A DNA stretch of 64,000 bases from Marsupella aquatica (GCA_973895155.1 OZ316896.1:10303525-10367524); one strand, 5' to 3'. Numbered from the stretch's first letter, positions 1 to 50,702 are shown. Notes: generated by a model not told the origin, from the sequence alone. Program-made: numbers and translations.

Positions 1-832
1 TGAGAGTGAGTGGTTAATTATATAACCAGTGTAGCCTGAGAACCCAGATTAAGTGATTGAGCTACACTCAGGTTTAACAAAGTACACTAGAGGTCCAACC
101 TTCAAACCTATGAGAAATCTCAGGTTTTGCAAACTACACTGTTCCTCGTAATTGATGATATGTAACAATTAGCATTACTAACATCTCGACTAACATTAAT
201 TTTGGTTAATTAAAATGATCTTGAGTCCAAAGTAACACTTATTGTTTTGGTTGTTCAGAATAGCTTTTTTCCACTTTTGTTCAATTGCTAGAAAAAAATG
301 GGTGATTTTGTGTATTCTTGTGTAATTTTCAAAGCCAATTTTTTCCTCTATTTTCCCACTCTTGAGACCACAGTAACACCAATTCATGGGTAGAGCCCTA
401 AATGTCTGCTCTCAAATTAGTGAGTAACACTACTTATGGTGAATAGTGTACAAGTTTTCACAATTTCACAGCTTTTGAAGGAGCTATACTATGAGTCAGG
501 TGGGACAGATTTGAAACCAAAAGTAGGAACAACAAACCTGCAAAGTATGACAGGAAATGTAGAACTCTCTCTCTTCTCTGCTCATTCAACCTAATTGTTT
601 GCTCTGGTCTTGCTTGCTGATCTTGTTCTTGATCTAGAACACCTGTCCAAAAGTTTAATGTTGCAATGGAACAGACTTCCAGCAAGGAGGATGCAAGCAA
701 TGCAACAATAGCCAGGGAGTCTTAAAGCTTCAATAGTCAACGAAGGGTGGCTTTTGGCCATAAACAAATGACCATAGCTTTTTCATAAGGATGTGTAAAA
801 GTTTTGTCTCAAGCGTCTTTTTTCCTCCCTTT

Positions 833-1176
833 TGTTGAGCATAGACGACATTCGTAACGGCAAGCCCATGAACCATCCAACGCACAATAGTCGACACAGA
901 GAGATACGTGGTTCACCTCCACATGAGACTACGTCCACAGGAACACACAAGAGCTTTACTGCACTCTAGGCCGACCGGCCATACCAAACATCCACAGCAC
1001 AAGCTCTCCCTATCTCTCAACTAGCTCCGTAACAATGAGCCTAAGTTCCACCAGGGTTTGGCATCAGCCCTGGCTATATGCACACCAGCACTACCACTAA
1101 CATTAGCTAAGTCCTAACCCGAGTTAGATTAACTGTGGTTAGCTCATGAGTCACAAGACTAGAGCAAAATCTAACA
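833..1176 (-). repeat. 3' LTR of the copia element
   Basis: tgttgagcatag...aaaatctaaca. Matches 22302-22645 with about 15 substitutions counted by eye, mostly transitions. Adjacent aactccccct (1177-1186) is the reverse complement of a polypurine tract. Confidence 0.95.
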
Positions 1177-1399
1177 AACTCCCCCTTGACTCTTGTCTTG
1201 GGGATTGGACTAAATGCAACCAAGGCATATGGAATCCTCAGCGGGAAGTTCTAGACAATCACCAAACCAGGTCTCCCCCTAAAAACCACAAGGGTTAACT
1301 AAGGGTTAACTAGAACTAAGCCGTAGCCTAACAGGAATGAATAATCCATATATAAATAGTCACACATTGCTAAATAACTCTACTTGTATTACAACTGCA

Positions 1400-3590: not shown

Positions 3591-3595
3591 TCCCT

Positions 3596-5282
3596 CTACA
3601 TTGTTGCATTCCACTCATGTTTATGCTCTGAAGCACAAGCCTCACTGTACGAAGAAGGTTCTCCTTCTTCCAAGATCAAAGCCATGTCATCATCATCAGG
3701 TGCAATGTCAATATCATCTAGCTTAGATGAGTCTGCCCATTGACCATACCTGGTAGGAGCTCTAGTAGAACGACTGGAAGTTCTTCTACTAGATGACTTA
3801 GGCTGATCTGCTGCTGCTATTGGTTGAATTTGAGGTACCCCAGCAACAATCCGCTCCTCTTGTTCCATCACGAGAACCAGCTCCAAGCCCGGAGCTTCTC
3901 CATCTCTCCTATCATGAACAACATCATGACTAATCTCCCCCTCAACACCGTCTGGGATGGGAGATTTTCCCTTGTCAGTATGGGAGTCCTGAGAACTCTC
4001 CCCCTCCTTTGATGATCTGGACTCATTAAAAGACACATCTCTACTGACAATTAGTTTACAAGTTACTGGATCCCATAACCTATAACCCTTCACACCTTTC
4101 TGATAGCCAAGGAAAATGCACTTCTTCGACTTGGACTCCAGCTTGGATCGAAGCTAGGAAGGTGTAAGCACATAAGCATCACATCCAAAAATCCTCAGAT
4201 GTGAGTAATCTGCTAGACATCCGTACCTCATTTCAAATGGCGTCTTGAATCCAATAGAACTAGATGGAGAAAAATTTACCAAATAAGCTGCAGTGTTGAC
4301 AGCTTCAGCCCAAAACTCATGTGGTAAGCATGATTGACTCAACATACTCCTCGAGCGGTCCAATAGTGTTCGGTTGAGTCTCTAAGAAACATCATTCTGC
4401 TGAGGAGTATAACTTGTTGTGAGATGGCGGGTAATGCCCTGTGTTAGATATTGCTCTAGTCTTGTGACTCATGAGCTAACCACAGTTAGTCTAACTCGCA
4501 TTAGGACTTAGCTAATGTTAGCGGTAGTGCTATTGTGCATATAGCCAGGGCTGATGCCAGACCCTGGAGGAACTTAGGCTCATTGTTACGGAGCTAGTTG
4601 AGAGATTGGGAGAGCTTGTGCTGTGGATGCTTGGTATGGCCGGTCGGCCTAGAGTGCAGTAAAGCTCTTGTGTGTTCCCGTGGACGTAGCCTCATGTGGA
4701 GGTGAACCACGTATCTCTCTGTATCGACTCTTGTGCGTTGGATGGTTCATGGGCTTGCCGTTACGAATGTCGTCTATGCTCAACACCCTGCTCCTTACAA
4801 TACGTTCCAAATTCCCCGGAACAATATTCACCGCCATTATCTGATTGAATATATCTCACCTTATTACCAGTCTGATTCTCAACTTGGGCTTTCCACTCCT
4901 TAAAAGTGGTAAAGACATCAGACTTATTGTGTAGAAAGTATATCCACACATACTTTGAGTAATCGTCTATGAACGTGACATAGTATAACCGTCCAGAATG
5001 TGAGGGAGTAGGGGCTGGACCCCACACATCACTATGTACATACTCAAGTACCTCCTTGCTAGTGTGAACTCCAACTCCAAAGGGTTTCCTGTGCTGCTTC
5101 CCAAACACACAATGCTCACAAAATTCCAACTTACAAGATTGCAAATTAGAAAGTAATCCTTTCTTCTGAAGAATAACCAAACTTTTTTCACTCATGTGGC
5201 CCAAACGGAAGTGCCACAGCCGGGCCGTTTCCTCATGAGATAAGGTTACATTGGCTTCATCACAAACTACACTGCCCTCCAA
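3596..5282 (-). pseudogene. Copia integrase with GAG-pre-integrase region (interrupted by solo LTR 4442-4785)
   Basis: LWHFRLGHMSE, CEHCVFGKQHR, VHSDVWGP, SDNGGEY, FWAEAVNTAAYL, KGYRLWDP. Confidence 0.93.
4442..4785 (+). mobile_element. Solo LTR of the same copia family, opposite orientation
   Basis: Reverse complement of the host LTR; 5-bp TSD CCCTG (4437-4441, 4786-4790); removal restores integrase ...YCKEQG-ITRHLTTSYTPQQN. Confidence 0.95.
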
Positions 5283-5285
5283 AAC

Positions 5286-5975
5286 CCCTGGGCCCTAAGC
5301 GTTACTAATACAGGGAGGACGTGCGAACATCGCAAGGGTATTTTTAATGTAATGCAAACTAATTTTTATAATAGTTTTTAAAGTAGGCAACATCCCTGTA
5401 TATATATTCAGCACAATATTAGTAATAAGGCTCTTATCAAATACATGTCAGATTAATCTTATGCAAGGGTACCCAAAATGCCAAGTACACACGTCACTAT
5501 ATGGTTGGCACACATGTCATCACTTTACTTGCGCACATGTTCATATAGTAAATCAGATATTTAATTATTTGTCGTCATAAGGCAAGTTTGGTTTCGTGGG
5601 CTTTAGGAACACTGAGAGGATAGTGCAGCCATGCTTGTCTGTATACTACAGGAAGAACTATAATTCTCTGGTACTAATTTTGTTTAACTATATAAAATAT
5701 GTACCCTAAACAAAGGTGTAACATACAAGTCCCCTATGCAAAATAAAGTCTTATCTATTTCAGTATGATATTTGCAATTTTAAAAATTCAAGGATGTTTT
5801 CAATTCCTTGAAAAACTATATTATAATTTACAAAAGGATAAAATTTAATAGGAAGTTAATATTTTTACATTAACAAGGGGATTTTTTTTGTGAACAAAAA
5901 TATTAAGAAGGGGTACATGGGGGGTGTCTTTTCTCAGGGGGGTTCACTTTATATAGTAAGAGTGAGGGCCCAGGG
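5286..5975. mobile_element. Same MITE family, copy 2, inverted relative to copy 1, 690 bp
   Basis: Near-identical reverse complement of 2722-3414; 8-bp TSD TCCAAAAC (5278-5285, 5976-5983). Confidence 0.92.
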
Positions 5976-5983
5976 TCCAAAAC

Positions 5984-6944
5984 GTATAGATTGCTATGTC
6001 TCTTTCCCGACCTTCAATACAACTTTAGTACCAGTTGAAACCTGAAGGACACCATTAGCAGAACTCCACTGATGGCCATTTTCTTCTAAAACTCCAAGTG
6101 AAATGAGATTTTTCATCATGCTGGGAATATATCTCACATTCCTCAATGTTCTTACAGCACCATCAAACATCTGAAATCTAACAGATCCAAGTCCAACCAC
6201 TTGACATGGGATTCTATTTCCCATCAACACTGAACCGTTGGAATTTGTATAAGAACTGAAAAAATCTCTCCTAGAGCAAATATGAAAAGTACATGCACTA
6301 TCTAGAATCCAGTCATCACTACCTGGATTTGACACTACGTTGAGAGCATAACCTTGACATCACAATATGTCATCATCATCGAGTAAATCTACCTCATGCG
6401 AGCTCAATGCCGCGTTAGCAGAGGCAGTAGGGACCTTTACTCGACAATCCCTTTTCATGTGGCCAGGCTTACCACAATTCCAACATGCAAGAGGCTTCCT
6501 CTCTTGCAATTTCCCTCTGGATTTAGATCTCCCCCGTGATGTAGATCTAAACCTGTTCTGCCCATTCGTGCGCTGCGCTGCTCTTCCCCTATTCACATTG
6601 AGCGTAGTGCCAGAAGAATATGATGTCTATGATTGACCCAGCTTCTTTTGAGCATCATCAGACAGTAATGAGCTCACCACCTCATAATACGAAATGGACT
6701 TCAGATCTCTATACAAGAGCACCTATTTCAAGCCCTGATATGACGGGGGTAAGGAGCTTAGCAGAAGCAAGGCCTTATCCTCATCTTCAACTTCTTTTCC
6801 CAGGTTTGACAGATCCACCGCTAGACTGTCAAACTCATCCAGGTGATCCTACATCTTGCTCCCTTCCTTGAGCCTAAGGCTCATCAAGAGAGACTTCTTG
6901 TATAGTCGGTCTGACGCATCTTCCCGGTAGTACTTCTCTCTTAA
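5984..6944 (-). pseudogene. Copia gag C-terminal part, zinc knuckle and aspartic protease
   Basis: Zinc knuckle CWNCGKPGHMKRDC; protease WILDSACTFHIC. Confidence 0.9.
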
Positions 6945-7574
6945 AACACGATTTCAGACCGAACGAGAACTATTTCCTCTAAACGAGAAGTGTATTTTCA
7001 TTTTCCGCCGAATCTCGCGAAATTGGCAGTTTTTTTCATCAAAAACGCGTTTTTGGGGAAATAATGTAATTCGTATCGGAGTTTGGATTGAAACAGCAAA
7101 TTTAATAATGATCAAAACCAATGAAATTTATGCTAACAAACATTCATATTATCAAGGAACAATTAGATCCGAAAAACTTTCTCCTCGACCTCATATTCAC
7201 GCTCTCCGAAGATATATGAAAGGTCTTATCTATAAGTCCATATCCACGTTTCGAGCCAAGTGCGATAACTGTATCGGACTCCGGATTTGAGCCACGAAAG
7301 CTTTGACCCAATCTCAGGTTTCTCAATTTTTGGATATTTACCAAAAATATTTTATATCACAGTCGATAAGAATTACTGCACGGTTCGTCAAACTTACCTT
7401 GCAGTTACCTCCGCAATTGACCAGTTACCTCCGCAAGTGACCATAGTCAACATGCCATTTTTTCAACAGCAATGCGCAGTCCGATAAAATTATCGTGAAA
7501 ACTACGGGCGACAAAAATACTAGTCGACAATACTAAGATCCTTCGGTTCATCGGTTAAATTTCAAAATTCCTAT

Positions 7575-7780
7575 CCATATGAAGAAAACTCTTCGCAATA
7601 CCAACATCAGATAAATTTATCGCTTCAATTTCAAAATTGCAACTTCCATATGAAGGAACCACTTTTGCAATACCAACATCAGATAAATTTATTGCTTCAA
7701 TTTCAAATTGCAACTTCCATATGAAGGAACCACTTTTGCAATACCAACATCAGATAAATTTATCGCTTCAATTTCAAAAC
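7575..7780. repeat. Three tandem ~72-bp subterminal repeats, each with GATAAATTTATCG
   Basis: ccatatgaagg...caataccaacatcagataaatttatcgcttcaatttcaaa repeated three times. Confidence 0.9.
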
Positions 7781-8064
7781 TATATAATTTTGCCACAATG
7801 CACGTGTGAGAATGAAATTGGAAATCCAAGAAATATACCCTTTTCTGCTATTTTGTCGTTTAGGGTGACAGCCAATCAAAAGTGGACACGTGGGCCAACC
7901 CCTCAACAGACACTATAAAAGGGCCACCGCCGATAAGTTTTTGGCGTCATTATCGAGAGTAGAGTTTTGGGAGTTGTGTTCTTGGAGCAACATTCTGTCC
8001 GTTGAGCCTTTTGTTTTCCCTGATTGCGGGAGGAATGCAAAGCCCCATAGTGTCTCGGATAGCC

Positions 8065-11000
8065 ATGTCTCAATCAGACACAGATTCACCTTCCAGTTCA
8101 GTTGAATCCTCTCCTAATCTTGTCGCTCGCTGTTTGCCAAGTCGCATACTTAAAGCTCTACCTCTCTCACAGCAAATAGTGCCCAAAATCTGACTCAGAT
8201 TTTGATGCAAGTTCTGGTTCTGAGCCCAGTGCTTACTATGTGTCGCCTAGTAAACCTGAGAAGCATCGTCACTTGAGCATTCCATCGCCAAGAAATGAGA
8301 AACTTTCAATCCCAGGTTTAGGTCCGAGACGTCGCTTCAGGCCATCCATCCCGGGTTATGGAGAGGGTATCCGGCGACCGATACGCGTATCGCAGTCGGC
8401 ATTCAAGTCGCCACATTCAACACAAGTTCAATGACCGATCTTTCAGTCTCTGGGTGAGGATCGGGACACAGAAAGACAAAGACCGATACAACGATCGGTC
8501 TTTGCATTGCCTGGACTGGATGTGCGAGCAAGCGAGGGAATTGGACTGCGAAGTCCAGACTCAGCCCTTTCTCGAATGGTCCGTGGGAATCATGGTGAAC
8601 AAGTGCTCAATTTTCCAGCAGCTCGCGGAGTCGTTGGGACTGCACGTGCGAATCCAGAATCTCCAAGTTCTCAAGGGCGGACTGTCATTGGTTCCAAGCT
8701 CCAAGTATCGAGGAGAGGTCTTAGTGGCGTTCGGGTTATGTATAGAGAGCCACGGAGTCCAATTGTGTTTTCAGATGAGTCGAGTGCATCGGAGGACGAA
8801 GATGAGGAAGGAGATAGAGAATCCGATATAATAGCACAAGTTGTGTCTGAATGTTTAGAAGGAGCTGTCGAAGAGAATAGCTATAGTCGTCTATTCAGTG
8901 CCCCTCTAAATGCGTCAAGGAGATCTATAGAGGATGGTAGCTTAGCAGAGAGTGATGCATCTATTCGCGAGGCACCTGAAGGACCCAAAAATGCAATGTT
9001 ATGAACGGATTTCAGGTTGTAGAGAAGTCAAATGAGCCTAGTAAAAAAGATAGGGACCGAATTACTAGGAAAGACAATGTGATAAATGACAAATTGAATA
9101 GAAACAAAATGAGAGAAATTCATAAGTATTCGTGTTGTGATAATTACTGTCTGCGGAATTTGGATCTGCTAACCGTGATGAAACAACGCACTTATTACTA
9201 TGGGCTATCCTACCCAGAGAAGAACGTCCTTCCAAGAGGATGTGTGAAGGGTGGGCATGCTGGTGCAAGTGGTTACTCAGTTAGCGGTAGATCCTTTTGT
9301 CGGAGTAGTTTTAAGAAATTATTTTCACTAGGAAATAATCGTCTCCAAAAAATCTCGCAGAACATGTTTTCTCGGATACAGATCGGTACAGTTTGTCAAG
9401 AAAAATCACCCGCACATCTTGGTCTCGTCTAATGGCTGGATGATTTTTTTCCAGAAATGTCGAGAGTCTCCCCAACAAGGATATCTTTCATTTACCTGAC
9501 AATTGGACAAAAACATAAGTTTTTGATGCCTTCCAGTCCGAAACTCTAATGCGCCAAGAACAAGGCATGACATATTCGTGGTTTCTTCGCATTTGGAACA
9601 AGGAGTTTCCTCGCGTGCGCATCCCCAAAAGGAGCCGTTTCTCCACCTGCGCCCCGTGTACTGAATTCAAAGCACTCCGTGACAAGGCAACACTCGAAGC
9701 AGAAAAGAGTAAGTTTCTAAACCTGTGTGTTACTCCCGATAATTTTATCGGGTTGAGTATTCATGTGCTTCTTCTTTGGCCATGTGAGTGAATATATCGT
9801 TTGAACAGTTTGAATACTGAACCTGATAAATTTATCGCTGTCACAGTTTTTCATTACGGTCGTGTGTTTGAATACTGAACCTGATAAATTTATCGTTGTC
9901 AGGGTTTATCATTACGGTCTTGTGTTTGAATACTGAACCCGATAAATTTATCGTTGTCAGGGTTCAACATTACGGTTATCATGTTTTGTCCTAAACATTT
10001 TTATTATTGTAGGAAAATTCTCAACATTGCTAAACGAGCATCGGAAGGCACAAGCAGTCGAGAGGGAGAAGTTAGCAAAGCACCGGAGCAAATGTTACAA
10101 GAGCCCGGAGAAATATTTAGGCATCTGTATTGATGGAATGGATCAAAAGAAGACAGAGTTACCTCATTTTATTTGGTGTCCGAAGAATATGGATGAAAAG
10201 TATTTCATCCCCGTACACGTAGTGGGTTGTTTGATCTTCAACAAACAATTAAGTTCAAATGTTTTTTTGAACTATCCAAATATTCACAATGATAGCAACC
10301 TGACCATCCACGTTATCCAGCATATTCTGAATACCTGGGAAGGTCTGCTCCCTCCAGTGCTTTACCTCCAGCTTGATAACACAGCTCGGGAAAACAAGAA
10401 TAAATATCTTATGGCATATTTGAATATGTTGGTGGAGATAGGTGTTTTCCAGAAAATAAAGGTTGGTTTCCTATTGGTGAGGCACACCCATGATCAAATT
10501 GATCAAATGTTTAGCAAGTTTTCTTCAAAATTGAACAAGCGGAAAGCTTTCCGATTGGACACTCTTTCAGCAATCATAGAGGAATCCTACAATCCTACGG
10601 CAAAGATATTTTTCGTCGACGAGGTTGCCGATTTCAAGAAATTTGTGTCAGACAAGGATCAAGCAAATGACAAGGATATGGATGGTCAGGTTCTACGTAC
10701 TCTCCACGACATAAGTGCTCAAAAACAATTTTGGATTACTAGAGTACTTGAAGATGGAAGTGCTCGGTCCGTATTCCATGCCAAACATCTTTCAACGACA
10801 ATCGATTGGGGGGAGACGGTGGATTTTGTTCGGTACATTCCATCATCTGGAATGTGGGTCGCACCACAAATAGCATTGAAGTCGGCCACGGGAGCGACAG
10901 GAGACAATGAAGAGCAAGAGAATGATGCTGAGGAACAAGATGAGCGAGCAACTCAAAGTTATTTGTCAACTCTTCAAAAATATCGAAGAGCAATTGAAGA

Positions 11001-11621
11001 TGGATTCAATTACTTTGATGACGCAGATCGTCTATGGTGGGGTCGTTTTTTGATAAACAAAAAGAAGTGATTCAGCACCACCTGAAACCTGCACAATGGA
11101 GTTTTGATTGGAGTTGGCCCAAGGTAAACGTATAGAGAGAACTTCCGAGTAATCCTACGGAAGCAGCAATGGAACCTAGCTTGGTTGATAAAGTAGCGGG
11201 TGTGAGGACAGTCATGTATTCCGGAAGTCGAAGAAAAGTCACGGAAATTGGAGACTTCAAGGATCTAGAGGTGAATACTAAATTTGCAATGATATGTGTA
11301 GCAGCCCATCAGGATCCCAAGGGAAGACCATTCTGGATGGCAAAAGTGACTGAGATTCTCACAAGAATTAATGACATCCCGGAGCGGATTAAAATCACTT
11401 GGTATGTAATGGATTCGGAGGAAGAGTCTGCAATTGAAGGCAGATATTATCTGGAGAAAGAGGCTTCGTCTAGCAAAGTACTGGAGGATGAATTGTCCCT
11501 ATCAGAAACTACCGTTTATGCGTATAACTTTGCGTTATTGGCAAATAGTACTCTCCCTATACAAACAAGACGAATCATTCAAAATGCAATGGAGACTGTA
11601 GTCGTTGATAATCGAAGCTAG
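8065..11621 (+). pseudogene. Sola-like/DUF7869-type DDD/E transposase of element 1, disrupted
   Basis: SCCDNYCL, FSTCAPCTEF, ICIDGMDQKK, LYLQLDNTARENKNKY, VRHTHDQIDQMFS. In-frame GT-AG intron 9709-10012. Stop at 9430 and frameshifts near 9000, 9450 and 11050. Start position approximate. Confidence 0.8.
9808..9978. repeat. Three tandem ~58-bp repeats in the transposase intron, each with the element-1 palindrome
   Basis: tttgaatactgaacctgataaatttatcgttgtc...cattacggt repeated three times. Confidence 0.9.
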
Positions 11622-11948
11622 TTTCAGGTTTAAGTTATAATGGTTATCGTTCCCATGAATATGTACAGTGGTTATCGTTCTGGGACTATGTACTCCGCAG
11701 CTATAATGATGTTTTTTTTAAAAATAATTTCAATTATAAACCAGTTAGAGAATACAATGCTGTCCGATAAGATTATCAACAACTCCATTCCCCCAGCAGG
11801 AACACCGCGACAGTCCGATATATGCAAAGTCCGATAAATTTATCGCATTAATAAATGTGACAAAGGTTCTTCCTCATGGAATACAGAATCCGATAAATTT
11901 ATCGACAACTTCATTGGTGATTGACATTATCCTAACGAGCACACGCAA

Positions 11949-14900
11949 CTAATCTAATAACATGTCGTTGAGATCATCCTCATTTGGTGTTCTGGGAGGC
12001 TCTTCCTCAGTTTCTTCTTGTTCCTCTTCGGTCTCCTTCATGACCTCAACTACGTAAGTCGATGTCCCGAGAACACCCAATTGGCCTGCAATTGGTGGTT
12101 GAATCTCATGACCTTCAATGTCGTGCCCTTCAATCTGGGATTCTTCATATAAATTCCAGTTTGACTCCAAAATCATGATCCGGGATTTTACAAAATCAAT
12201 CTGCGCAGAACTCTTATCAACAGCACAACCCTGGCGAGAATTGAGGAGCATAGCAGCTAATATCGATCCGGTTCCACAACAAAGATCAATAACCCAATCC
12301 TCTTTCTCAGAGAAATGGGAAACAAACCAAGCCCCCAAACCAACAGGCTTCTGATATGGGTTCACAACAAATCCCAACGGATCAACGGACTTCTTGGTTA
12401 CACATGGAACCTTGATGATATTGACGCGAGACTCATCCGGTTGGAAATTGTACATGTTCATGTTCCGAATGCCTTCCTCGCTATAGAAACCTATCGACCA
12501 GTTCTCAAAACCCCACGCCAATCGAGCTCCAACGGGACGCTCATGAATGTTAGTCTTCTCCCAGATTCCAGCCTCGACCCCACAGTTGCATACACTCTCC
12601 AGTGCAGACATCACCATATGCGTTTGTTGTAGTGAAGGGATCACAACAAACCTCCACTGCTTAGCGGTCGTCATCTTTGAGAAACTTGTCAACATGTCTA
12701 AAATATCCTTTTCTGTGAAGGCCACTTCATCAAACTCCGAACCAGGAGCATTAAAACCATACGGAATATCCGCAACCGCAAGGGTGTAAGCCCTTGGCTG
12801 AACAAAAGAATCCAAAATTCGAACATCACCAACATGGAGATAGTAGGGAAAAGAATCCCCGTCTGCATTTTTCCATGTTTGTTCAAACGCTTCTGCTCTG
12901 CCCTCGCCTAAGGACCTCAGCCTATTGTACTTATCGATTGCAGCAAGCACAAAATTCTTAAACACATAAGGGATTTCAGCTGAGGGAACAATAACCTCCC
13001 CCGCAGAATTATAAGTGACAGCCGGAATCACTTTGCTTTTCCTTTTTGAATTAATCTTCAGCTGTAAGAATGTCAGACACATCTACAGTTAGAATAGCGT
13101 GAGATGAATGCTAAAGCCGATAAAAATCTCGCGATGGAGCACGCTAGCCAATAGATGGAATCGCTTAGAAACCAACAAAGGAATTCTAAAGCCGATAAAA
13201 ATCTCGCGATAGAGCATGCTGTGAGAGGAATGCTTACCGCGTCACTCAATTTCTCCGCCCATATGCCAAGGACCAAGACATCTGTTTTGTTGGGAAACAT
13301 TTCTCTGCATGTTGCCCAATCTGGCTGACCAGATATCTGCAAAAATAGTTTCTTCACCTTGGCAAGATTTTTTAACTTCTCACCTTCCTTGTGCATTTGA
13401 TCCAAAGTGATCACCTTCCCGATAACCCTATTCAAGAGACGCTTGACATGCTCCTTATTTGACAGTCCTTGGAGACCTCGAAATGAATTTAAGTTGAGGT
13501 CACCAGCAAGTTTATTCATTTTAATCTCCCTTACCGTCAAAGGTTTTACCTTTCCCTTTGCGTTTGTCATTGCCACAATTTTTTTGGGTTGTCCTAAGAC
13601 AATACCTTTCTCCCACATCTGGAAAATCTTCTCCTGAAGATCCCAAATTTCACCTGTTCGGAAAGCAATTTGGAAAGCCGGATCATGTTTGGCCATGGAG
13701 TCACGAACTCCTGGCGTGTACTCCATCATGCATTCTTGACAACATGCTTCGCGGACATCTTTAGTCGAGCCCACACCCATTTCAAGGAAAATATTGTGAC
13801 AAGCGTGAACTTGGTCAATTTTAGTCATGTTCTTCCGATACTCCTGGTCATAGTTATGCTGGAAGCCTAACTTTCGGACCTTGGATCTCGTAAGCCCAGC
13901 GTAAACCCAAGCTTCCAGCTCACCATATATTTGCTTTCCGTACATTTTAAACAACTCGGACTTTGCCCGAGCAGCATGATTCCCTCCAATAATTCTATAC
14001 TTCCATACCCTTGACTTCAGGATGTCCCAATCTGCGGTTGTGGGACAATCCTTCGGATCCACACACAGCACGAACGGGGCACTAAAGTTGGTGGGGTTTT
14101 TCATGAGAAGTATCTTGATATTTTCCACATGCAATCTATCCACTGGTCTAATCAAAGTTGACAAATCCCCCTCCTCATCAAATATGAGATTGTCGACATG
14201 CAGAAGCACAGTTGTCCTTTGCACCCTTCGTTGCATCAGAAGACTGAGCTCTGCCTTGATCGCGTCCGTCTCATACATCGAAAGAGCCGTCTCCTCCTCC
14301 TGATCAGCCTACAAAAGCGTTGCAAATTCAATTAAGGAAAGAAACTGCAAGATTTTTATCGGAGTTCGCATTTGTTCAACATAACTCCACAATCCGCAAT
14401 TCAGGAAATAAACAGCGAGATTTTTATCGGATTTCGTATTTGTTAAACAGTACAACGATGTAGTACTTACCAATGGCGCCGCAGGAACCGCGACTGGAAC
14501 TGATGGAATTGACAGAGCTCTATCTACTTCTACAGCCACCGTCTCAGTCCTGCCAGTCCTCTTCCTCTTTGTGCTAAGTCCAGAACCAGATGGCCCGGAT
14601 CCCTCGGATCCTTTACTTTTGCTTGGTTTAACGTATGGTCCTCGACGGTTGCCCCGGCCTCTCCCACTACCGCCAGTTTCCTGGCTCTTCTTCCCACCGT
14701 CAGAGGTTCCCGCGGCATCTCCCCTGCCGCTACCTCTCCCTTTCCCTTTTCCACTTCCCGAAACCCGACCAGAAGTTGTAGGTTCGTCCACATCAATATG
14801 TGTAGAGGATTGCAATGGTTCTTTCCGCCCCGACATTTCATCGACATTAGAACCACCGCTGCCACTTGAACCTGGTTTCTTGAAAACAATTTTGCGGACA

Positions 14901-15439
14901 GGTTTGAACTCTTCACCCACAAGTCTCTTGTACTCTGCGTTCACCCTTGGAAGCATGATGGCATCACAATCTTGCACATACTGGCCGATCCAAGCCGAAC
15001 CCATAACATTCATCTCTCTTGCTGCCCGAACGTCGGCAACAAGGGGATCTTCTGGATAACTGTCCATCGATTTCTCATCAAAGTTATCAAGAGTAACAAT
15101 GAGAGATGTGAAACCCTTGCGCCCACACATTGTCAAGAAACTAAGGCCCTCTGTCAACACTTTTCCCTCCCCGTGGCCAACCATGAACTCGACGACGACA
15201 ACAGCAATGACAGGGCCATACGAAACATTAACCTTCGCCAATTTTTGCAACTGGACCCAAAGGATTGGGGTAGCACAGTCTTCAAAACCCGTGGACTGTA
15301 ATCTAGCGTCACGGAAGTACCATGACTTCTTGATACACTTGACCTCTTCACAAATGTCTTCACTTGTCCAAATTGCATTGGTGAGGCTTGTCATGAGACT
15401 TTCTGCCTCAACAGATCCACTCTTTCCACTAGCAACCAT
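11949..15439 (-). CDS. Three-exon ParB/Srx-fold + beta-class N6A/N4C DNA methyltransferase fusion, ~1050 aa (exons 15439-14471, 14308-13238, 13061-11949)
   Basis: Both introns (14470-14309, 13237-13062) are GT..AG, phase 0 and join the ORFs in frame. ParB-like RPVDRLHV...YRIIGGNHAARA. MTase motif IV ADIPYG precedes YQKP and motif I VIDLCCGTGS, the beta permutation. Acidic tail. Confidence 0.82.
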
Positions 15440-15621
15440 GGAAAAGTCTGCAAATAAACAAATTCCAATGCAAAGAGCGATAAAATTATCGCCGCCAATC
15501 TCACAGCACATGTGGACACGACATCTCATCACACAAGGACAAAGAGACCGATAAAATTATCGCAAAAGTGAGCCTTCTTTAAATTGACGACCGAGTGTAC
15601 AGGTCGAAGAATCAGCTACGG

Positions 15622-15664
15622 AACCCTAAATCCAAAACCTTAACCCCTAAACCTAAACCCTAAT
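15622..15664 (-). promoter_or_regulatory. Telobox-like (AAACCCTA-type) cluster upstream of the ParB-MTase gene
   Basis: aaccctaaa...aacccctaaacctaaaccctaa, upstream of a probable 5'-UTR intron (~15449-15600). Confidence 0.45.
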
Positions 15665-15713
15665 CATAGTTGAACCTCACCAGAGCGAAGCGTTCGATCC
15701 GCTTCTTGGGCCA

Positions 15714-16373
15714 TTAGGGAATATGAGTGACGCGATGATCATAAGCCCACATCCAATGGAAATCAACTTCACCAGTCTCAGGATTCACTACTGCTACTGA
15801 ATACCGGCGTGACGGAATGTCACAACAAGCATTTGTGCAGCATGGACAGATCTCACCATTGGCAAGGACGTTCGTCCACAGGCAACTTACATAGATCAAG
15901 TTAAAGAGCCCACAGACCGGCTGGGGGGGGAGTTGTTGAATCTTGTATGAATATAGTTTCCCACCAGTGTCAATAAAAAACTCGATGGCAAGAGGATTGT
16001 CCAGCTCGTCAATCACATCCTGAATCTCATCGAATGCTCTACGTCTGTTGTCAGCATAGAATTCTGGCTCATAAGCAAGATTGCCCTTCACAACATGACA
16101 GCAGTGGAGTATAAAACGTCTTACTGCACCGGTTTTCAGAAAGAGTAGGATAACTCTTCTAGAAAATCCAACATATCTATCCCACTGAATATAAATTTCT
16201 CCCCCTACCTGATCTACGTAGAAGTGAAATGCGTTATGGTAAAACGGTTTTACTACCAACCTGCATATCTTTAAAATTAGTGACTCATCCAGCCTCCTTA
16301 GCTGGTCCAGCATGGCTCCATTCCCCCATTCTGGAGGATTCGGGTAGGGTACAAAAATGCGTCGCTCGAGCAT
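15714..16373 (-). CDS. Hypothetical cargo protein of element 1 (219 aa, Cys-rich C-terminus)
   Basis: Open 660-nt ATG ORF inside the element, co-oriented with neighbouring cargo genes; no recognised family. Confidence 0.55.
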   Translation of the reverse strand: MLERRIFVPYPNPPEWGNGAMLDQLRRLDESLILKICRLVVKPFYHNAFHFYVDQVGGEIYIQWDRYVGFSRRVILLFLKTGAVRRFILHCCHVVKGNLAYEPEFYADNRRRAFDEIQDVIDELDNPLAIEFFIDTGGKLYSYKIQQLPPQPVCGLFNLIYVSCLWTNVLANGEICPCCTNACCDIPSRRYSVAVVNPETGEVDFHWMWAYDHRVTHIP

Positions 16374-16665
16374 GGCCTGATCACCGAATAGAAATCAGGA
16401 ATAAATTTTGGAGAACATACTAATTACAATTCTACAAGTTTCATCCAACTTTACAGTACCTTGTATAACGGGCTGTGAAGCCAATGCACTTGTCAGCTAA
16501 TCGTCCGAAGAGGCGTTAACAAATACACTCTGGACCACACAACCCGAAGTCAGGGGAGGGAGAGTCAATTATATTCAAAGTGTTTCTTTACAAGCACCCA
16601 AAATCGACTAGAGGAATGAGGAGTGCGATAAATTTATTGGATGTTCGCAGCAATGCCTCATCCAC

Positions 16666-17214
16666 TCAGACTCGTCCATGCCATGCAAGAATTGTTCGCT
16701 TCCCGCTTTCTCCAAGATTTATCCAAACTCTACGAAACTGATCTAACTGCTCATACGAAAAGCACCCAAGCATATCTATGGGAGGGAGGAAATGAGTTTC
16801 CTCTCGGAAGACCCTAGCAATATGTAGGTTTGAGAGAAGGTCGGCATTAGGAATGCTTGCGAGCATTTTGTTTATGTCATTGATCTCACGGACTGCATAT
16901 TTCAATAGCGCCCAAAATCGTGTACCAACAACAAGATGGTTCCATTTCTTGGAGGTGGCTCCAAGACAAATGATTGTTCTCATTCGAGTCAGTCGTTCTT
17001 CTGGTAGAAGTTTTAGGTCAAGGCCAAGGTGTTCATCTTGTGTGCAAGACAAGGCTAGGAGGGGCCAAATGTGAGATTCAACAAGTTGATCGGGAAGTCC
17101 ATTCAACAAACTTCCGCATTCCACACCGGGCACTTTTCCTCGAATATATTTCCTACGCTCGTGGGCTGAAACGGATCCCATCTTTGCAACGATTAGATTC
17201 ACCGATGCAGCCAT
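16666..17214 (-). CDS. F-box-like cargo protein (182 aa)
   Basis: LLNGLPDQLVESHIWPLL...LGATSKKWNHLV; homologous to the three ORFs at 60.8-62.6 kb. Confidence 0.7.
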   Translation of the reverse strand: MAASVNLIVAKMGSVSAHERRKYIRGKVPGVECGSLLNGLPDQLVESHIWPLLALSCTQDEHLGLDLKLLPEERLTRMRTIICLGATSKKWNHLVVGTRFWALLKYAVREINDINKMLASIPNADLLSNLHIARVFREETHFLPPIDMLGCFSYEQLDQFRRVWINLGESGKRTILAWHGRV

Positions 17215-17408
17215 GAAGCAGAGCTACCAAAACCACCAATAAAAATACCTTCAATCACCAGGTGTAACTGAACACATCCACAGTACCAACCCTGCACGAC
17301 AGCTTAACGATTAGGACTCGTGACGTATTATATTCGCTGCGCAAGGGTAGGACTTGTTTATTTAAATATGTCCTTCCAAGATGCGCCTCAATGAAAAGTT
17401 CGAAACAC

Positions 17409-17738
17409 TCATCGTGAAAGGTTCACCCAAGGGTCTTCGTTCCAAATCTTACAATAGAAGTGAGCCTGTTTGTGGTACTTGTTGTCAAGACGACGACAAC
17501 AATAGTTACAAGAAAACTCCAAAGAATGTAAACACGCCGTTAACATCAACCTCAAACGAATTGGAACTCCTGCATCATTCATTCCGCAGAATTCAATGCG
17601 GAGAGGATTCTGCTTATCTCCAGGATCAGTACCACCCATCCACAATGCTCCTATACCGATGGGGAGAACTTTGAGTCGCACGAGTCTCTTGTACAACCGG
17701 CGTGCACGTTTGACACAATTTTCAAGGAAGACAGCCAT
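17409..17738 (-). CDS. Possible small cargo ORF (109 aa)
   Basis: ATG ORF co-oriented with the other cargo genes; no homology recognised. Confidence 0.3.
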   Translation of the reverse strand: MAVFLENCVKRARRLYKRLVRLKVLPIGIGALWMGGTDPGDKQNPLRIEFCGMNDAGVPIRLRLMLTACLHSLEFSCNYCCRRLDNKYHKQAHFYCKIWNEDPWVNLSR

Positions 17739-18651
17739 TTGTCACAATACCTGTTGTCCACGGAGTGCAATCGACCTTCCATTGTGCCTCCTAAACTCGG
17801 CAACACTACGACATCAGAGATGAAGATGAGTCTCCAAATAAAACAAAGGAAAATGATTCTCACAGGAAGATGCGATAAGTTTATCGCACTCCGCATTCGA
17901 ATTGAAAATATGACTTCCTCAAACACCTAAGCCCTGAATTCAATCTTTCACAAAAATGACAACTCCGATAAATTTATCGGATTCTCAATTGCTCCTCTTT
18001 CCATCAAAGGAATGAAGACTCCGATAAATTTATCGGAATGAAGGCAACACCTCTCTAAACACTGGATCAAATGATTGCAACAGAGGAATGCAAAATGCGA
18101 TAAATTTATCGCAGTCCGCTCGGATCTGGACATTTTACACTAAATGACTAGTTAGTCTTACATGGAGAACTTGAACAGGAATAGCTGTTCCGATAAATTT
18201 ATCGGGTTTTTGGTAGAAAGAGTCAAATCGCTTGGGAGGAATGTAAGACTTGATGGGAGTTTGGTATTCGCTCTCAATCAGGAGATATTTGCTCTGGCGA
18301 AAGCAAACATTTTATGGGCAGCCCGCTCCTCTTTATATAGGAGACGCTCTAAACCATGGTTAATTTCCCCTTAACCATGGTTAATTTTCTCCTTTACCTG
18401 GGTTAGTGCGTGGTCGTTCCTGGATTACGCGGTTCGGACCAAGTTACTCGCAGTTCGGACTTTTTCACTAACGGAATGTAAAACCCGATGCACGTATCGC
18501 TCCCTGCATTCCCGCGGCGATGCAATGGAGGAAAGTGGCATTTCGGAGAGTTTTTTCCAATTTTATCGGTCATTGCATTGCCTTAGAAAAAAAACGGGAT
18601 CGGGCTAAATGAGAACTCTGACACACTTTTCGGTCGGTCCGAAATCGTGTT

Positions 18652-19135
18652 TTAAAGCCTTGAACAGTGACGCGCAATCCGCATAATCATCCAACTGCTT
18701 GATGATATGCGGCTTGAGATATAGCATCACTGCATTGACAGCAATTACCTGCTCCTGTCTCCACTGTCTCACATAAATCTCCTCCTCTCCATCATACTGC
18801 TCTCGCGAAGAGAGCAGATAAGCTAAGCCCATGTCCCGTAGAACACCCTTCACTTGCTTCTCCCACAGCAAGTAATCAGTACGACCATCGTACTTCTCCA
18901 CCTCAAACTTCACTCCTCCAAATCTAGCCATCTCCCTCTTCTTCCCTACTACCGATAGCTCTGGTAGTAGTACAACTTCCTCCAATGCACGCCTCACCGG
19001 TGATCGTACCGGTGATACAAGTTCCTCCTCAAATGGTAACAGCTCCTCCTCAGACTCTCCGTCTGACCGTTGCGATCCTGAAGCTCCACCGACGCCAATT
19101 CTTCCAGTATCCTCCGAGTCACTCATATGAAACAA
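18652..19135 (-). pseudogene. Copia gag N-terminal part
   Basis: KFEVEKYDGRTDYLLWEKQVKGVL. Removing 6945-18651 plus one TTAA rejoins the frame as ...SLFKALREKYYREDASDRLYKK. Confidence 0.9.
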
Positions 19136-20764
19136 TCACGAAAAAACGTCTTTTTTTGAAACTTCTCACAAAACTCAAAACTCAACACCACCGCGTAGCC
19201 CACGAAGCTAGGAGTCCAATACTGAAAGCCGGAATCAAAATTGAAATTCGACGGAAAAGTTATTCAAATTTTGGTCAGGGTGGGTAAAACCTTGGGAAAC
19301 TCCCCCATTTTGACCACCTCGGAGAATAACCAAAATACCTAGTACAACCTGTCGTCGGAATTGCAATGTGATCGGTGCGCCGCGTTGCTAACTCCAGTGG
19401 CAATGTCCTCGCCAAAAAAGAACCAAAAAAGTTATCATTCGGGGGACAAAATCTTTGTCGGACGGTCAAAAAACAGCTGTCTGTTTTTCAGGAATATTCC
19501 CGCACAATCCAACAGGTCTCATAGGGGGCCGTTCCCCCTGTCGGAGCGGTGAAAATGGAGGGCCACCGGGCCCGGGACAGCCAATAGAAGAACCGGGAGG
19601 AAAAAGTTAAAAAATTGGCCTAAAAGGGGGGTAAAAGCCCCTTAGCAAAACAAATACGCCAAAACGCGCATCCGCGTTGTCGGCGAAATCTTTAGTTCTT
19701 AGGAAGCACTGAGCTCTTGTTTTTCCTATCTTGGAAGAAACCTTTCCAAAATACATCTTTTCTCACCTCACATTACCCTTGCGATCCCCTTTGTCGATCA
19801 ATTTCTCTCACCGTTATACTCTAAAATATCTCTCACAGCCTTTATCCCACTCTACGATGAGCGGCTTCCTCACACTAAGCCTCAAATCGGCCTATCCTCT
19901 TTCCACATAACTTACTTCCCAAGTCAAGTCATAGATTGCAATTTCCAACGAATCCTACAACTAGATAAGTCAATTATAGAAAACAAAGACTATGATCTTA
20001 ACATTTACCATAGATGATATAATCACAGGCTCTAGCATCCTAAGCATAACATTGTATCTTTTATCTCCATATTTTCTAACTAAAACATCTTTACAATCAA
20101 CCTTCTTACGACATACCACTCTAATGTCAATAGATGAAGGAAAATCAGACACATTATTAGGAAGCCTATTCAAATCTAACTCCGGTACATTTATGGATTG
20201 TCTATTAAAATCCATCTAATATAAAATAAAAATAGTTACATTCTATTCATTTCCATAAACAACAATCGGGTATACAAATGGTGCATCGCTATTCATAACT
20301 ATTTCCATTAACTCAAACCCAAAATGATAAAGAAGATGCATTCTCATGGTATGTTTGCTAAAACAATGAATTCTAATTAAAAAAGGATTGACAAATGACA
20401 CAGCAGGTGGGGGATAAACTCTAGGTACTCCATTTATCATATTATTCATTACAAGCACACTAAATTGATCTCAAGACTAATAAACATAAAACATAAAATA
20501 GTTCTAAGGCTAACAATCAAGTTAGTACCCAAGCATGGAGGTAAATAATAAACAAGACATGTGCACAAGAGGGGAATAGTTTCTTACATTGTTGCGAGTC
20601 CAACACGATAGATCAAACAATGCGAATGAGGAGAGTGTGCTCCTCTTCACTTTATTTATAGTGCCATTTTGTGTTTTCCAAGAGGGCATGGATCGATGCC
20701 TTGACCCTTGGATGGAAGCCAAGTGGCAAGCATCAAGCACCTATAAGTGTGCTAGTACTATTCA

Positions 20765-21008
20765 TAGTTGGTGGAACTACTGTGCGTAGTTGGTGGAATT
20801 ATTACGCATAATTGGTAGAACTACTATGCGTAATTGGTGCAACTACTATGCGTAGTTGGTGAAACTACTATGCATAATTGGTGCAACTACTATGCATAGT
20901 TGGTGAAACTACTATGCGTAATTGGTGCAACTACTATGCGTAGTTGGTGGAATTACTATGCATCTAGTTTGTAAAACTACTATGCGTAAATGGTGGAACT
21001 ACTGTGTA
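20765..21008. repeat. 22-bp tandem minisatellite, ~11 copies
   Basis: Unit tagttggtggaactactatgcg with variants. Confidence 0.9.
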
Positions 21009-22287
21009 CCATTGTAGAATGTACACACTACATATATAATGTAACATATATGCTCTAATAGTACTACTATGAAGCTTTTAAGTAAAACCCTCTTCACATA
21101 AACTCAAATAACACAATATGGATTCTAGCCTTCTAAAAGGAATCCCCATGACAGCGTCGCGCAACGCGAGGCGGATCAGGGGGAATACAGGGCGTCGAGG
21201 TAGGGGTCGAGAGTATGGCAGGGGCGTATCGGGCCGCATATAGGCGGCGCACAACAACGAAGGGCCGGGGTTTAAACAAAGTCGTGAGGTGACTTCGCGA
21301 TTGTCTGAGGGCAGTCGCCGGTTGCAACGTGCGTAAAGGGGTGGGGTGAGCGCGGGGCCGGCTCGCGAAGGGTTGGTCGGGGGTGAAAGGCCGGCGCGGG
21401 GAGAACAAAATTCAGGCCGGGGCGCGCACCGGTCGGCGCTGCGGGAAGCAGCCGGCCGCGGCTGCGATCAAGTGAATGCTGGAGGGAGGGGGCCAGTCAA
21501 GGGGGTTCAAGGGTAGAGGTCGGGAGGTTATGAGGTGTGTATACACACCTCGTGTGTGTATACACACACCAACAACCCCCACTAAACCAGAAAAAATAGC
21601 CCTTAAAAAAATGGTTGTGTTACAAACCTTCTCACTCCCGCATTAGACAAGCAAAGTGAACACCGCGACGGGAAAAGTTGCCAAATTTCACCGGCACATT
21701 TTGCAGCTCCAGTAGAGGAAAAACTTTCCGTCACGTCGCCTTCACTCCGCGTCAAGCGCCAATCCCGGGCTCAAAATGACCGCCTCGCCGCGATCAAACC
21801 GTTGAGCCGTAGCACTTTGCGTTTCTTCCACCAAGTCGGACGTCACGAAGAGAAACCCGGTTCAGATGAGAACAAGCTCCATAGCTTGTGAAAAAATCTG
21901 AGCGACTCCTTCACTCATCATGACACACTCGGTAATAACTCGGCAGCAACTCAGCTACCGAAATGACCAGCTCGCTTCAACCTTCAACTGGAGCTATAAT
22001 GTGCGATCCCTCCCACACCGCACGGCTCACACCGTTGAAAAACGTGATCTCTGGTCTCTCTCCCGAAAAGCCGTCGAACACGAATAAAACCTGAACGATG
22101 CAAACTTCAGTTCCTTCGCACCACGGATACCGATCAGCGAGTTCTAACCACCATTAGAATGCCCTCTCACTAACCTATCCGCATAGCCACACACATTCGA
22201 GTTTCATGCGATGAAACTCCAAATGTACCATCGACAATGAACGCTGGAAAAACCTATCACAAAAAGACCTCGTCACCTCCCAGGCAT

Positions 22288-23386: not shown

Positions 23387-26300
23387 TTCATGATTAAATT
23401 CTAACTTTGGATTTCCGGCCAACTTATTTTTCCCCTGACAAATTAATATTTGAAAAGAATTGGCCACTTTAGGCTAAAATTGACCAAAATTCATACAGAG
23501 CTACTTACTCTATTAAACCACACCTGCTGGATCATATATATAAAGGCCTCCAATACATCTCATTCTATCTTGTGGTGAATAGATCCAGGGAGATCTGATA
23601 ATCACAAATGGGTCACTCATTGTAGGGGGCAAGGAACAGTACACATGATGACCCCTAAATTTTCTATATCCAACTGCCTCACCCAACAACAACCTGGTTC
23701 ATAACATCCATTTTGGGGACTCCTCATTTTGCTAGCAAACTCACTAGCCGTTTTGAGTCATAAAAAACACAAAATATATACAAGGCAACGGAAAGCAAAA
23801 GAAAATTTAAAACATCTAGTGTCTCGCTAACAAAATTCATGTTTGCTAGCACTATACACTACCTCACGATCACAAATTAACTTATCGCACTGCCAAAAAG
23901 ACAGGAGGGAGCGCCAAACCGGGAGACATGGTTCCAAAGGCAAAAAAACCCAATAAAGGGGGGAAGCAAAAGACCCAAGAACACCAAAGAGGCCCAAGAA
24001 GTCAATGAGTAACCTAGCAAATAAAATCAAAAGACAAAGGAGAAAACAACAAACAAACAACCCTACTGGCTGTAAACTGAAAAGCCTGGGAGAACTAGAT
24101 AAAAAATATTCCTAGGCACACCAGGTAATATCTCAATACATCTGAAAAACTGTGTAAGTTTTACACACTATTGTTTTTCCAGTTATTTGTTAAGTGTGGT
24201 GGGAAAATGTTAAATCGCCCTCAGATCCATTAGCACAAATTTTTGGGACGCTTGGGATGAGATACGAGTAGTCGCAGTGAAAGTGAACTTGCGAGCCCTG
24301 GCATTTGCTCCAGTTGACCGTTCACTCATTGGGTCTGTGGTACTTGGGCCACAGTTCCTCCAATATCTTCGGTTTCTTCCTTTGACCTTCCCTTCCTTTC
24401 TTCACGACAATCTACTTTGGTTGTAAAGATTATATAGCGATACAGGAGTAACAATTGTAATTTGCCTACGCCCACGATCTGTAGTGTGCAGGTTTCCCTG
24501 GCTCCTGGAATGGTACTCATTGTTGTGAACTTGCCAATCTTCCTTTTTCGGAAGCGCAGAGCTCATTTACTCAGTTGACTACCTTGTCGTTGCTATCCCT
24601 CGATCCGTCGAAGAACCGACAGCTATAATACGATGTCCAAGGTGCTGAATATTACGAGCACTGATCTACCGAGCCCGATCAACCCTCCAGTGCCACTGCA
24701 TGTTAATTCATCATCATCCAGCGATTTTCTGGATTTCAACCATGAACACAAGGAGACTGACTCTGCATTATATCACATTCTTTCTAGATTCTAACCATGT
24801 CTGGAACCCTTCATTGAAGAACTTCACGGCCATCTGATTCGCTGTACAAATCATTTACTTGTGCCAAGAACGTACCGGTTCAATACCTTGCCTTGACCAG
24901 TACATATCTTTAATAAGGAATTAGTAAACTGTCCAATATATTGCAGTTCTCTGTTTTTTATCCGACCCAAAATGTAGGGAAGGATTAAGAAGGTTATTTG
25001 CAGATGATTTCCATCTGTGTCATTAAAGCTAGCTTTCTACGTACACAAGGAGGTTCCCTTCCGCCCTAAGTTACAGGGGCACACACGAGTTTTGCCCACC
25101 ATGTACGTGGCACTAGTCTACATATTAGTCACAATGGGTGAGTTATCGATCTATGCTGGACCTCAGAGCTCCACATACTCGAGCTTTGTTCCATGGCGGG
25201 TTCATCTCCCGAGCCAGTGTCGATGTCGAGATGACTTCTGATCACATGGTAAATTCCAAGAGTACCCGAAAGGATCACACTGTATTACTTGGAGAAAACT
25301 AAGGAAAGGTAGAAGGGTTTGCTAGGCGCCCAACACATTTTGATCTGGATGCAGTTGACAACCAGCTGCACTGGAGTGATTCGTCCCCAATCCAGTGTAA
25401 TCCCGCCCTAAAGAAGTTCTATGTCCTCTAACCCGCCAAACAATTCCATGGTCTCATCTTCAGTATCGGTAGCCTCTGCCGTTTGATGTTGCTGCTGCTC
25501 TTGCTAGCTGACGATGTGTTGCGTTGGCGTCCACAATATCCTCACGTTGTATTTCTGGCAATTGTAACGGCATGCTGAAGTCACGATACTCCAGCTCAGT
25601 GAAGCCGGGGGAGAAGCACCTTCCTTTCGGCACCAGAGCGTTGTATCTACAGATTAGCATCTGCAGGCCTTCGATACATGAGTTTAGAACCGAAACTTTG
25701 TCAGCCTTGCGATTAAAAGGGGTGGGCAAACCCGTTAACTCCAAATGGACAGCTTTCAAGCCCTCCTTGATTCGCTTTCGACGTTTCTGTTCTGCAATTC
25801 TATGGGCTTCAGCAGTCCGACTTCTTTTGCCGGTGCTGGTTTGTTCTTGACTGGGTTCTGGAAGCCCATCCTTGCTCTCTCCATCGTGTGACCCCGCAGC
25901 ATCGGGGACCTGCTCGTGTTGCATCGTTTTGCCCTTCAAAGCCAGACGACGTGACATACTCCCGTCGTCGCTGGTCTGCATCCAGAACGGCTTCGTTGGT
26001 GTTCGAGCTCCAAGATGCTCCAACTGACAGTGCGCAAATTGTGCCAGACGAAAACAATTGATTCAGTATTGCATGCGCAATGTGTATTCAATTTTCGCCA
26101 AAGGAAAGGAAACATGAAGGCCACGAACAGTCGAGTCCCGCAGAGAAGGAGAACGAGGGCGCAGATACAAACATCCCAGGCGCGTTACCCTCGCAGTGAG
26201 TGGCAAGTTAAATAGTGAAATAGACCGCACGCGAGACTTGGAACTCCCGTTCTACTTCGATCGCTTCTGCTCTCCTGCAGCTAGCGGTCTGGTCGGGCTG

Positions 26301-49639: not shown

Positions 49640-49834
49640 AGTATTAGATTAATTCCAATTTTATCTAAATATTATTAGTTAATGAATGATCAACCTCTTT
49701 AACATTTGGTGGGATAGTCAAAAACTTCAAATGTTTTGTTGCAAGATCTTTATAACAATGCATCACTAAATGACATGAAGTACCTCTTGATCCATGCACA
49801 AATCCTTAATTAAACTATCATTCATTGTTTCAAT

Positions 49835-50410: not shown

Positions 50411-50702
50411 AGACGATAAGACTTGTCTAAACTTGAGTTCTCTGGCTACTACTATTCTGAGTTGCCTTTTAAACTGTATGCTAAACTACATGCTTCATTA
50501 CTGTCTAGGATTTGTCACTTGCTATGCATGTCAAGAGATAGTCTCTTGCCTTGACAGCAACATTCTTTGGAATTCCTACCAGCCCTGTCATTGGTCTTTT
50601 GCGTGCTTTGAAACACCACAAGGCAGAGGAAACATCTATTGTCTCAGCTTCCTTGTATATTGGAGATGGATCACGTTCCCATTTCTTATCCCAAGAATCT
50701 GC

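Follow-up and report, generated by a model that had tools for sequence, protein, structure and literature searches.

A conserved helper gene for a predicted ParB-methyltransferase protein in a Sola1-like transposon of Marsupella aquatica

Transposons that encode a ParB-like methyltransferase protein have been described recently. According to the accessible parts of its description, element Sola1-1_Ec32 of the brown alga Ectocarpus has an accessory protein of 1104 aa with a ParB-like and an N4C/N6A methyltransferase domain, which its authors propose to bind and modify its own element (PMC12477816, Genome Biol 2025). Here we describe a gene of this kind, the helper gene, in a Sola1-like element of Marsupella aquatica. 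It lies in a stretch of 64,000 nucleotides (GCA_973895155.1, OZ316896.1:10303525-10367524), called the window, from whose first letter all positions are counted. The architecture as such is already published with the Ectocarpus element; new is a land-plant case in which the catalytic motifs are kept. Judged from its sequence, it is a real gene in a real element, of a recently described kind whose proposed activity is predicted.

Sola1-1_Ec32 and the window element have in common a 4-bp target duplication, termini starting with AAC, a helper gene on the strand opposite to the transposase and proteins of 1104 and 1050 aa, respectively; this likeness of the proteins is one of described architecture. 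The two differ in size, the excerpted account giving 21.5 kb with 282-bp terminal inverted repeats (TIRs), compared with 11.7 kb and 22-bp TIRs in the window. Catalytic motif, selection test, co-divergence and palindrome, which are given below for the window family, were not met in that account as far as it is accessible. In red-algal Plavaka elements, PAG2 is a PF01555 methylase and PAG3 has a ParB-like domain and lies beside inverted-repeat arrays (bioRxiv 10.1101/2025.02.11.637652, accessible sections). These are likewise transposon accessory genes for which self-modification has been proposed. Unlike the window gene, they encode separate proteins (methylase plus SET; ParB plus 2OG oxygenase), are accompanied by an EnSpm/Plavaka transposase and have tandem arrays adjoining one gene, whereas the window sites are element-wide.

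VANC of the Arabidopsis VANDAL elements is also an element-encoded factor, with target motifs that are dense in the non-coding parts of these elements and rare elsewhere (PMC5735166, in part). VANDALs are Mutator-like, however, the VANC motif is not palindromic, VANC induces loss of 5-methylcytosine (5mC), and its binding is demonstrated where that of the window protein is a prediction. MpDN4MT1a/b of Marchantia and N4CMT of bdelloids are eukaryotic, intron-bearing or host-expressed enzymes of the bacterial beta class (bioRxiv 10.1101/2021.02.12.428880; PMC8885841). They are host genes with a (T)SPPY motif that yield N4-methylcytosine (4mC), and the accessible text mentions no ParB domain, whereas the window gene combines DIPY with ParB. 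Because these enzymes carry (T)SPPY and the helper family D-x-P-Y, they are unlikely to be of the same type, contrary to the likeness drawn in the original prediction, which had been made from the sequence of the window. The motif alone was the ground for rejecting orthology with MpDN4MT1 or N4CMT. The window gene also fits none of the eukaryotic methyltransferase clades of Iyer et al. 2016, in the accessible sections of which the ParB-helix-turn-helix fusion is group-2 Dam and the permuted clades are MT-A70, the S-motif clade and the Naegleria clade (PMC4738411).

Bacterial CcrM, M.BceJIV, M.RsrI and ParB/Noc resemble the window protein in predicted folds and motif order, at 11-19% identity; the latter differs in being the product of a fused, probably spliced eukaryotic gene, with an altered ParB box II and DIPY. 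The Replitron and plant TIR-survey papers do not mention ParB in their accessible parts. No land-plant report of a ParB-methyltransferase helper gene with kept catalytic motifs was found in the literature, although Repbase, Bao 2009, Iyer 2011 or preprint supplements may hold one.

Gene model and predicted domains

Three open reading frames (ORFs) had been joined through two phase-0 GT-AG introns into a stop-free frame of ~1050 aa, and this gene model proved right. The joined exons, on the minus strand, comprise 3153 nt and encode 1050 aa with a single terminal stop.

15439-14471, minus strand: exon 1, 323 codons; N-terminal domain conserved at about residues 10-190; a low-complexity G/S/K/R linker follows it
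14470-14309, minus strand: intron 1, phase 0, GTAAGT..TAG; contains a 68-bp duplication with palindrome variants
14308-13238, minus strand: exon 2, 357 codons; predicted ParB/Srx-fold domain at about 14230-13829, GGNH motif at 13987-13976, helical region thereafter
13237-13062, minus strand: intron 2, phase 0, GTAAGC..CAG; contains two palindrome variants
13061-11949, minus strand: exon 3, 370 aa and stop; predicted beta-class amino-methyltransferase domain with DIPY, YQKP and DLCCGTGS; acidic tail

The exon junctions are conserved in five close metagenome loci (L001-L005), which are 47-63% identical to the window gene in exon 2 and 55-58% in exon 3. Donor and acceptor of intron 2 occupy the identical phase-0 position in all five, as does the acceptor of intron 1 in the three loci that extend that far. 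Of ten close ORFs homologous to exon 2, nine extend to the donor column, and each of these shows a Val codon (GTN) at this point, beyond which similarity stops. This conservation makes it likely that the helper gene is spliced from three exons. Exon 1 is 31-32% identical to L001 and L003; it had no Pfam match, and its Atlas matches reach only 0.85, with low recognition.

For exon 3, structure prediction (pLDDT 85, 41 sequences) points to the beta-class amino-methyltransferase fold that had been claimed. The model matched CcrM best in Foldseek (6pbd, E 5.6e-14), followed by M.BceJIV, M1.HpyAVI and M.RsrI; entries of the CcrM/RsrI/PvuII/MboIIA fold had E-values of 5.6e-14 to 1e-9. Exon 3 hits Pfam family PF01555 at E 3.2e-4 with a score of 21.2, under the gathering score of 26.7, and 7 of 26 aligned relatives match this family (best E 7.6e-18). 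In Atlas, exon 3 scores 0.96-0.97 to PF01555 clusters, mostly of phage. As stated at the outset, catalytic motif IV stands ahead of motif I: DIPY is at residue 778 (12770-12759), YQKP at 916 and DLCCGTGS at 939 (12287-12264).

The motif DIPY departs at its second position from the canonical (D/N/S)PP(Y/F/W). D-x-P-Y was found in 70 of 100 aligned stretches covering motif IV, DPPY in nine and an initial Ser in three. Two motifs outside the search patterns are conserved in distant loci, YQKP in 55 of 57 and DLFSGxG in 16 of 17; the occurrence of DIPY in 73 of 73 was discounted because it was part of one of two search patterns. By the DPPY/SPPY rule, in which the first residue of motif IV is a guide to the methylated base, the Asp favours N6-methyladenine (6mA) over 4mC. 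The source of this rule, in its accessible parts, also urges caution, the specificity of this domain having switched repeatedly between the two (PMC8885841).

The ParB/Srx fold claimed for exon 2 is likewise borne out by the model (pLDDT 83). All 11 Foldseek matches at E <=0.001 were ParB or Noc (Noc 7nfu, E 1.2e-5; ParB 6sdk, E 3.1e-5), and VIA aligned exon 2 with PadC (Z 10.8, root-mean-square deviation (rmsd) 2.7, 99 residues aligned), KorB (Z 9.6) and sulfiredoxin (Z 8.3). The alignment with Noc comprises 287 columns (TM 0.38/0.56) and includes the DNA-binding part. The helical region aligns weakly with the DNA-binding domains of ParB, Noc and KorB, for the last with Z 5.2, rmsd 4.0 and 110 residues aligned in VIA. 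A Pfam scan of exon 2 gave no ParB match, and PDB sequence searches had a best E of 0.15. The arginine-rich ParB box II reads GERRxRA. It is replaced by GGNHAARA in the window protein and by GGNHGARA in ten of ten close homologues, so CTP chemistry is uncertain.

Host element and helper gene family

The helper gene lies, as had been supposed, within a DNA transposon. The insert spans 6945-18651 (11.7 kb), with the following ends and transposase gene.

6941-6944: TTAA, left copy of the target duplication, 4 bp
6945-6966, plus strand: left TIR, 22 bp, begins AACACG; agrees with the right end at 20 of 22 bases
8435-11621, plus strand: DUF7869 (Sola-like) transposase gene, broken; Pfam PF25273, E 1.7e-48; convergent with the helper gene
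18630-18651, minus strand: right TIR, 22 bp
18652-18655: TTAA, right copy of the target duplication, 4 bp

The empty site, a joint of 6940 to 18652 in uninterrupted copia sequence, was found in contigs of all four runs. The insertion site itself consists of high-copy, partly inverted pieces of a copia-type long terminal repeat retrotransposon (1-6940 and 18656-20000). In runs X1 and X2, long contigs of the element have ~20 times the depth of those covering 343-705, a rough sign of many near-identical copies. AACAC also begins the related termini, whose flanks vary. This favours duplication of 4 bp of free sequence, as seen at a single filled site with both flanks, which a TA reading would also fit; duplications of the TA type and of the strict TTAA type are disfavoured by the varied flanks.

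The transposase gene has an uncertain 5' end and a probable intron at ~9710-10013, and the DUF7869 transposase has three Asp-bearing motifs. A review, in its accessible part, defines Sola by a 4-bp target duplication and a DDD enzyme (PMC10741241). Curated Sola1-1_Ec32 is given a 4-bp duplication and AACCG termini (PMC12477816, in part), which have the first three bases in common with the AACAC of the window element and related loci. Termini, duplication and DUF7869 suggest, apart from any Repbase comparison, that the element is a Sola1-like cut-and-paste transposon.

A profile search gave 237 proteins at E <=0.001, many of them with both domains. A homologue search among proteins of 649-2000 aa was empty, though the profile search gave full-length fusions. 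Chara braunii, Ginkgo, Adiantum (fern) and Riccia (liverwort) were among the organisms of 30 proteins looked up. The window protein groups with those of Chara, Riccia and Ginkgo (support 0.77) in a FastTree of 71 sequences rooted at the midpoint. The Chara braunii protein GBG86584.1 (P0007) is an 1825-aa model with two tandem ParB-methyltransferase units, perhaps fused neighbouring genes.

A DUF7869 transposase is located beside the helper gene in 13 of 80 metagenome loci, in convergent (as in the window), divergent or tandem arrangement. Where the flank exceeds 2.5 kb, it is present in 9 of 13 loci, and where it exceeds 3.5 kb, in 8 of 11. Locus L057 shows a two-gene element of 7.6 kb (180-7773) with TIRs (180-216 and 7737-7773), a stop-free transposase frame of 897 codons and the helper gene, on a contig that collapses several copies and has non-matching flanks. 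Transposase and ParB distances are correlated in 10 elements (rho 0.87, p 0.0005), and also in seven, with the window and two near-duplicates dropped (rho 0.81, p 0.018).

The dN/dS check proposed in the original prediction was carried out in a distant subfamily (L006-L080), which is just 30-40% identical to the window gene. The median was 0.034 for ParB (40 pairs, dS 0.03-1.5), 0.058 for the methyltransferase domain over 60 pairs (values up to 0.66) or 0.065 over 12 disjoint ones, and 0.10 for the transposase (five pairs), from pairs that are non-independent and, for the methyltransferase, from alignments that span introns. Both values for the helper domains are far below 1, and the gene is under purifying selection in this subfamily. 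As the sequences present it, the helper gene is an old, standing second gene of a Sola1-like family rather than a one-off capture.

The enzyme had been described as horizontally derived. This is plausible in so far as the predicted folds are of prokaryotic type and would fit a bacterial or phage origin, which would be old; a one-off capture by this element is not borne out, the second gene being conserved across Chara, liverwort, fern and Ginkgo. A tblastn search of phage gave a best E of 9e-5 over 75 aa. Pattern scans, which detect close relatives only, gave one locus with 24% identity in viral sequences and no close relative among 50 pattern matches in prokaryote genomes. Any transfer would be ancient, since a close prokaryotic relative was not found.

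Palindromic sites and proposed self-methylation

The element contains a palindrome in many copies.

7263-18500: palindrome CGATR-N4-YATCG, consensus CGATAAATTTATCG, with 15 exact sites in the element and 26 that differ by one mismatch

The 15 exact sites contrast with none in the other 52 kb of the window (0.08 expected by a Markov model). Of 29 one-mismatch sites, 26 are inside the element, and one of these 26 is in annotated coding DNA. Sites are found at both element ends, within introns of the two genes and in the intergenic gaps, and every half-site has a CG. A related palindrome with a six-base spacer occurs 20 times in L001 and 5-11 times in each of L002-L005; the N7 type, with one extra spacer base, has 108 sites in 29 of the distant loci. 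CGAT-N6/7-ATCG fills the non-coding DNA in each lineage. By analogy with ParB-family proteins, which bind inverted repeats (bioRxiv 10.1101/2025.02.11.637652, accessible part), it is likely to be the binding site of the helper protein, and its layout resembles that of the VANC target motifs and of the inverted repeats adjacent to PAG3.

On balance we consider it probable, if only just, that the helper protein serves palindrome-guided self-methylation, probably as 6mA, and so protects the element from silencing. The predicted ParB-fold module of exon 2 would bind the CGAT-N6-ATCG palindromes spread through the non-coding DNA of the element. The beta-class methyltransferase module would then methylate DNA of its own element, probably as 6mA, and this mark would keep the promoters and introns of the element usable against host 5mC silencing, as VANC does for VANDAL. 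In the land-plant family the catalytic motifs are kept, there is an exact candidate site, and constraint is above that of the transposase in the measured subfamily; the self-marking proposal is therefore directly testable. Were it to hold, it would provide a source of genuine 6mA in non-flowering plants, another sequence-specific kind of anti-silencing besides that of VANC, and a nucleus in which a ParB-like loading system operates.

A wider proposal is tentative and rather doubtful: an old streptophyte Sola1 lineage may have a working ParB/parS-like system that loads on the palindromes, spreads and writes 6mA against 5mC silencing, the spacer (6 or 7) co-diverging with the protein. If true, land plants would have a writer of 6mA in DNA that is encoded by a transposon.

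Several observations weigh against self-methylation, in addition to the limits of the dN/dS estimates given above. DIPY differs from the canonical DPPY, so methyl transfer by the predicted domain is not assured, and with GGNH(G/A)ARA in place of the arginine-rich box the action of a CTP clamp is not assured either. The transposase is also a candidate binder of the palindromes, and the data do not separate the two. Four of the 13 long-flank loci are without transposase, and shared age alone also yields correlated transposase and ParB distances. Stops occur in 7 of 43 ParB segments. Between the window gene and L001-L005, synonymous sites are saturated (pS 0.75-0.86) and dN (0.31-0.48) is the sole measurable quantity; in the window copy, six of seven private coding changes alter residues (see below).

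That the palindromes are instead sites of the transposase, with the ParB-methyltransferase acting elsewhere (on transposition intermediates, other cargo genes or host DNA), we regard as unlikely. Subterminal repeats bound by transposases are common. The abstract of a 2026 preprint reports sequence-specific activation by a transposase itself, and a second DUF7869 element in the window has a palindrome of its own, yet just a weakly ParB-like ORF. On the other hand, the sites are not limited to the ends but fill introns of both genes and intergenic gaps, and the exon-2 model aligns with the inverted-repeat-binding ParB family, with Noc even in the DNA-binding part.

A slightly smaller chance is given to a methyltransferase domain that does not transfer methyl groups, the protein being a VANC-like DNA-binding anti-silencing factor or a scaffold. 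The departure of DIPY from DPPY would agree with this, as would the inactive transposon-borne methyltransferase domains in DIRS1 elements (PMC4738411, accessible part). However, Asp and Tyr of motif IV, YQKP and motif I are conserved across deep lineages, DPPY itself occurring in nine of the 100 stretches, and the domain is under purifying selection.

Improbable, too, is a reading in which the enzyme produces 4mC, for instance at the CG within the CGAT half-sites, where it would compete with host 5mC. Its appeal lies in the repeated switching of the domain (PMC8885841, in part), in the CG of every half-site and in bdelloid N4CMT and M.PvuII, which follow close behind the 6mA enzymes in Foldseek with the exon-3 model (E ~2e-10). 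Yet the top ten rows of this search that name a base are all N6-adenine enzymes, and eukaryotic 4mC enzymes have (T)SPPY where the helper family has Asp first and only rarely Ser.

State of the window copy and other features

The original prediction had set an intact gene against a broken transposase. Three-frame reading reveals six lesions in the transposase, namely frameshifts near 8993, 9465 and 11045 and stops at 9430, 9516 and 11133, and none in the helper gene. By length share, this distribution is mildly unexpected (p ~0.012), which counts against pure decay; at 1.3% divergence, ~2 stops would be expected in the helper gene. The difference in lesions stood, but the contrast is weak: sister copies are without three of the six, differing from the window at 8993 (three of four runs), 11045 (all four, for part of the depth) and 11133 (all four), and the private changes look neutral. 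Six of seven private coding changes, drawn from 40 listed of ~1,500 difference rows, alter a residue (E466K, R491H, T570M, H822P, A857V, T951M), a proportion with p 0.44 if neutral and 0.005 at dN/dS ~0.15. Some are at conserved positions, H822P at a conserved His, and most are C>T or G>A.

Since its private changes resemble neutral ones, the open frame of this copy speaks only weakly for function; the copy was also noticed because it is open. The window copy is probably in decay, with a frame that by chance is still open, in a family that keeps both genes. Maintenance of its helper gene by selection, through domestication or in a non-autonomous lineage that retains it, would account for the lesion-free frame and the missing stops but is very improbable in view of the mostly nonsynonymous C>T or G>A changes, the way in which the copy was noticed, and the intact ends and duplication inside a copia element.

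Upstream of the helper gene, the element holds two further ORFs.

16666-17223, minus strand: cargo ORF with weak F-box likeness, to which three ORFs of the window's second DUF7869 element are related
15714-16394, minus strand: cargo ORF, 226 codons stop to stop, no family assigned

The second DUF7869 element, of the same plan, occupies 49,800-64,000 and may extend beyond the window end. Its transposase (50703-53911, minus strand) shares 42% identity with the first over 101 aa. It has three F-box-like ORFs (60815-62596); such cargo ORFs are common to both elements (23-34% identity) and were found in none of the 80 fetched loci. Its ORF at 62648-63826 contains a GGQH motif and aligns weakly with the ParB family (hhalign probability 9%, E 0.0036). 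Its own palindrome, ACGC-N8-GCGT, has 20 sites compared with 0.12 expected.

Between the two elements, the region 24,500-49,100 consists of large repeats spaced ~9.4, 10.1 and 17.9 kb, of which one copy includes a basic helix-loop-helix (bHLH) ORF (25460-26062) and another, near 42.5-44.1 kb, is inverted. A tandem array at 20721-21024 is made up of ~11 units of 22 bp.

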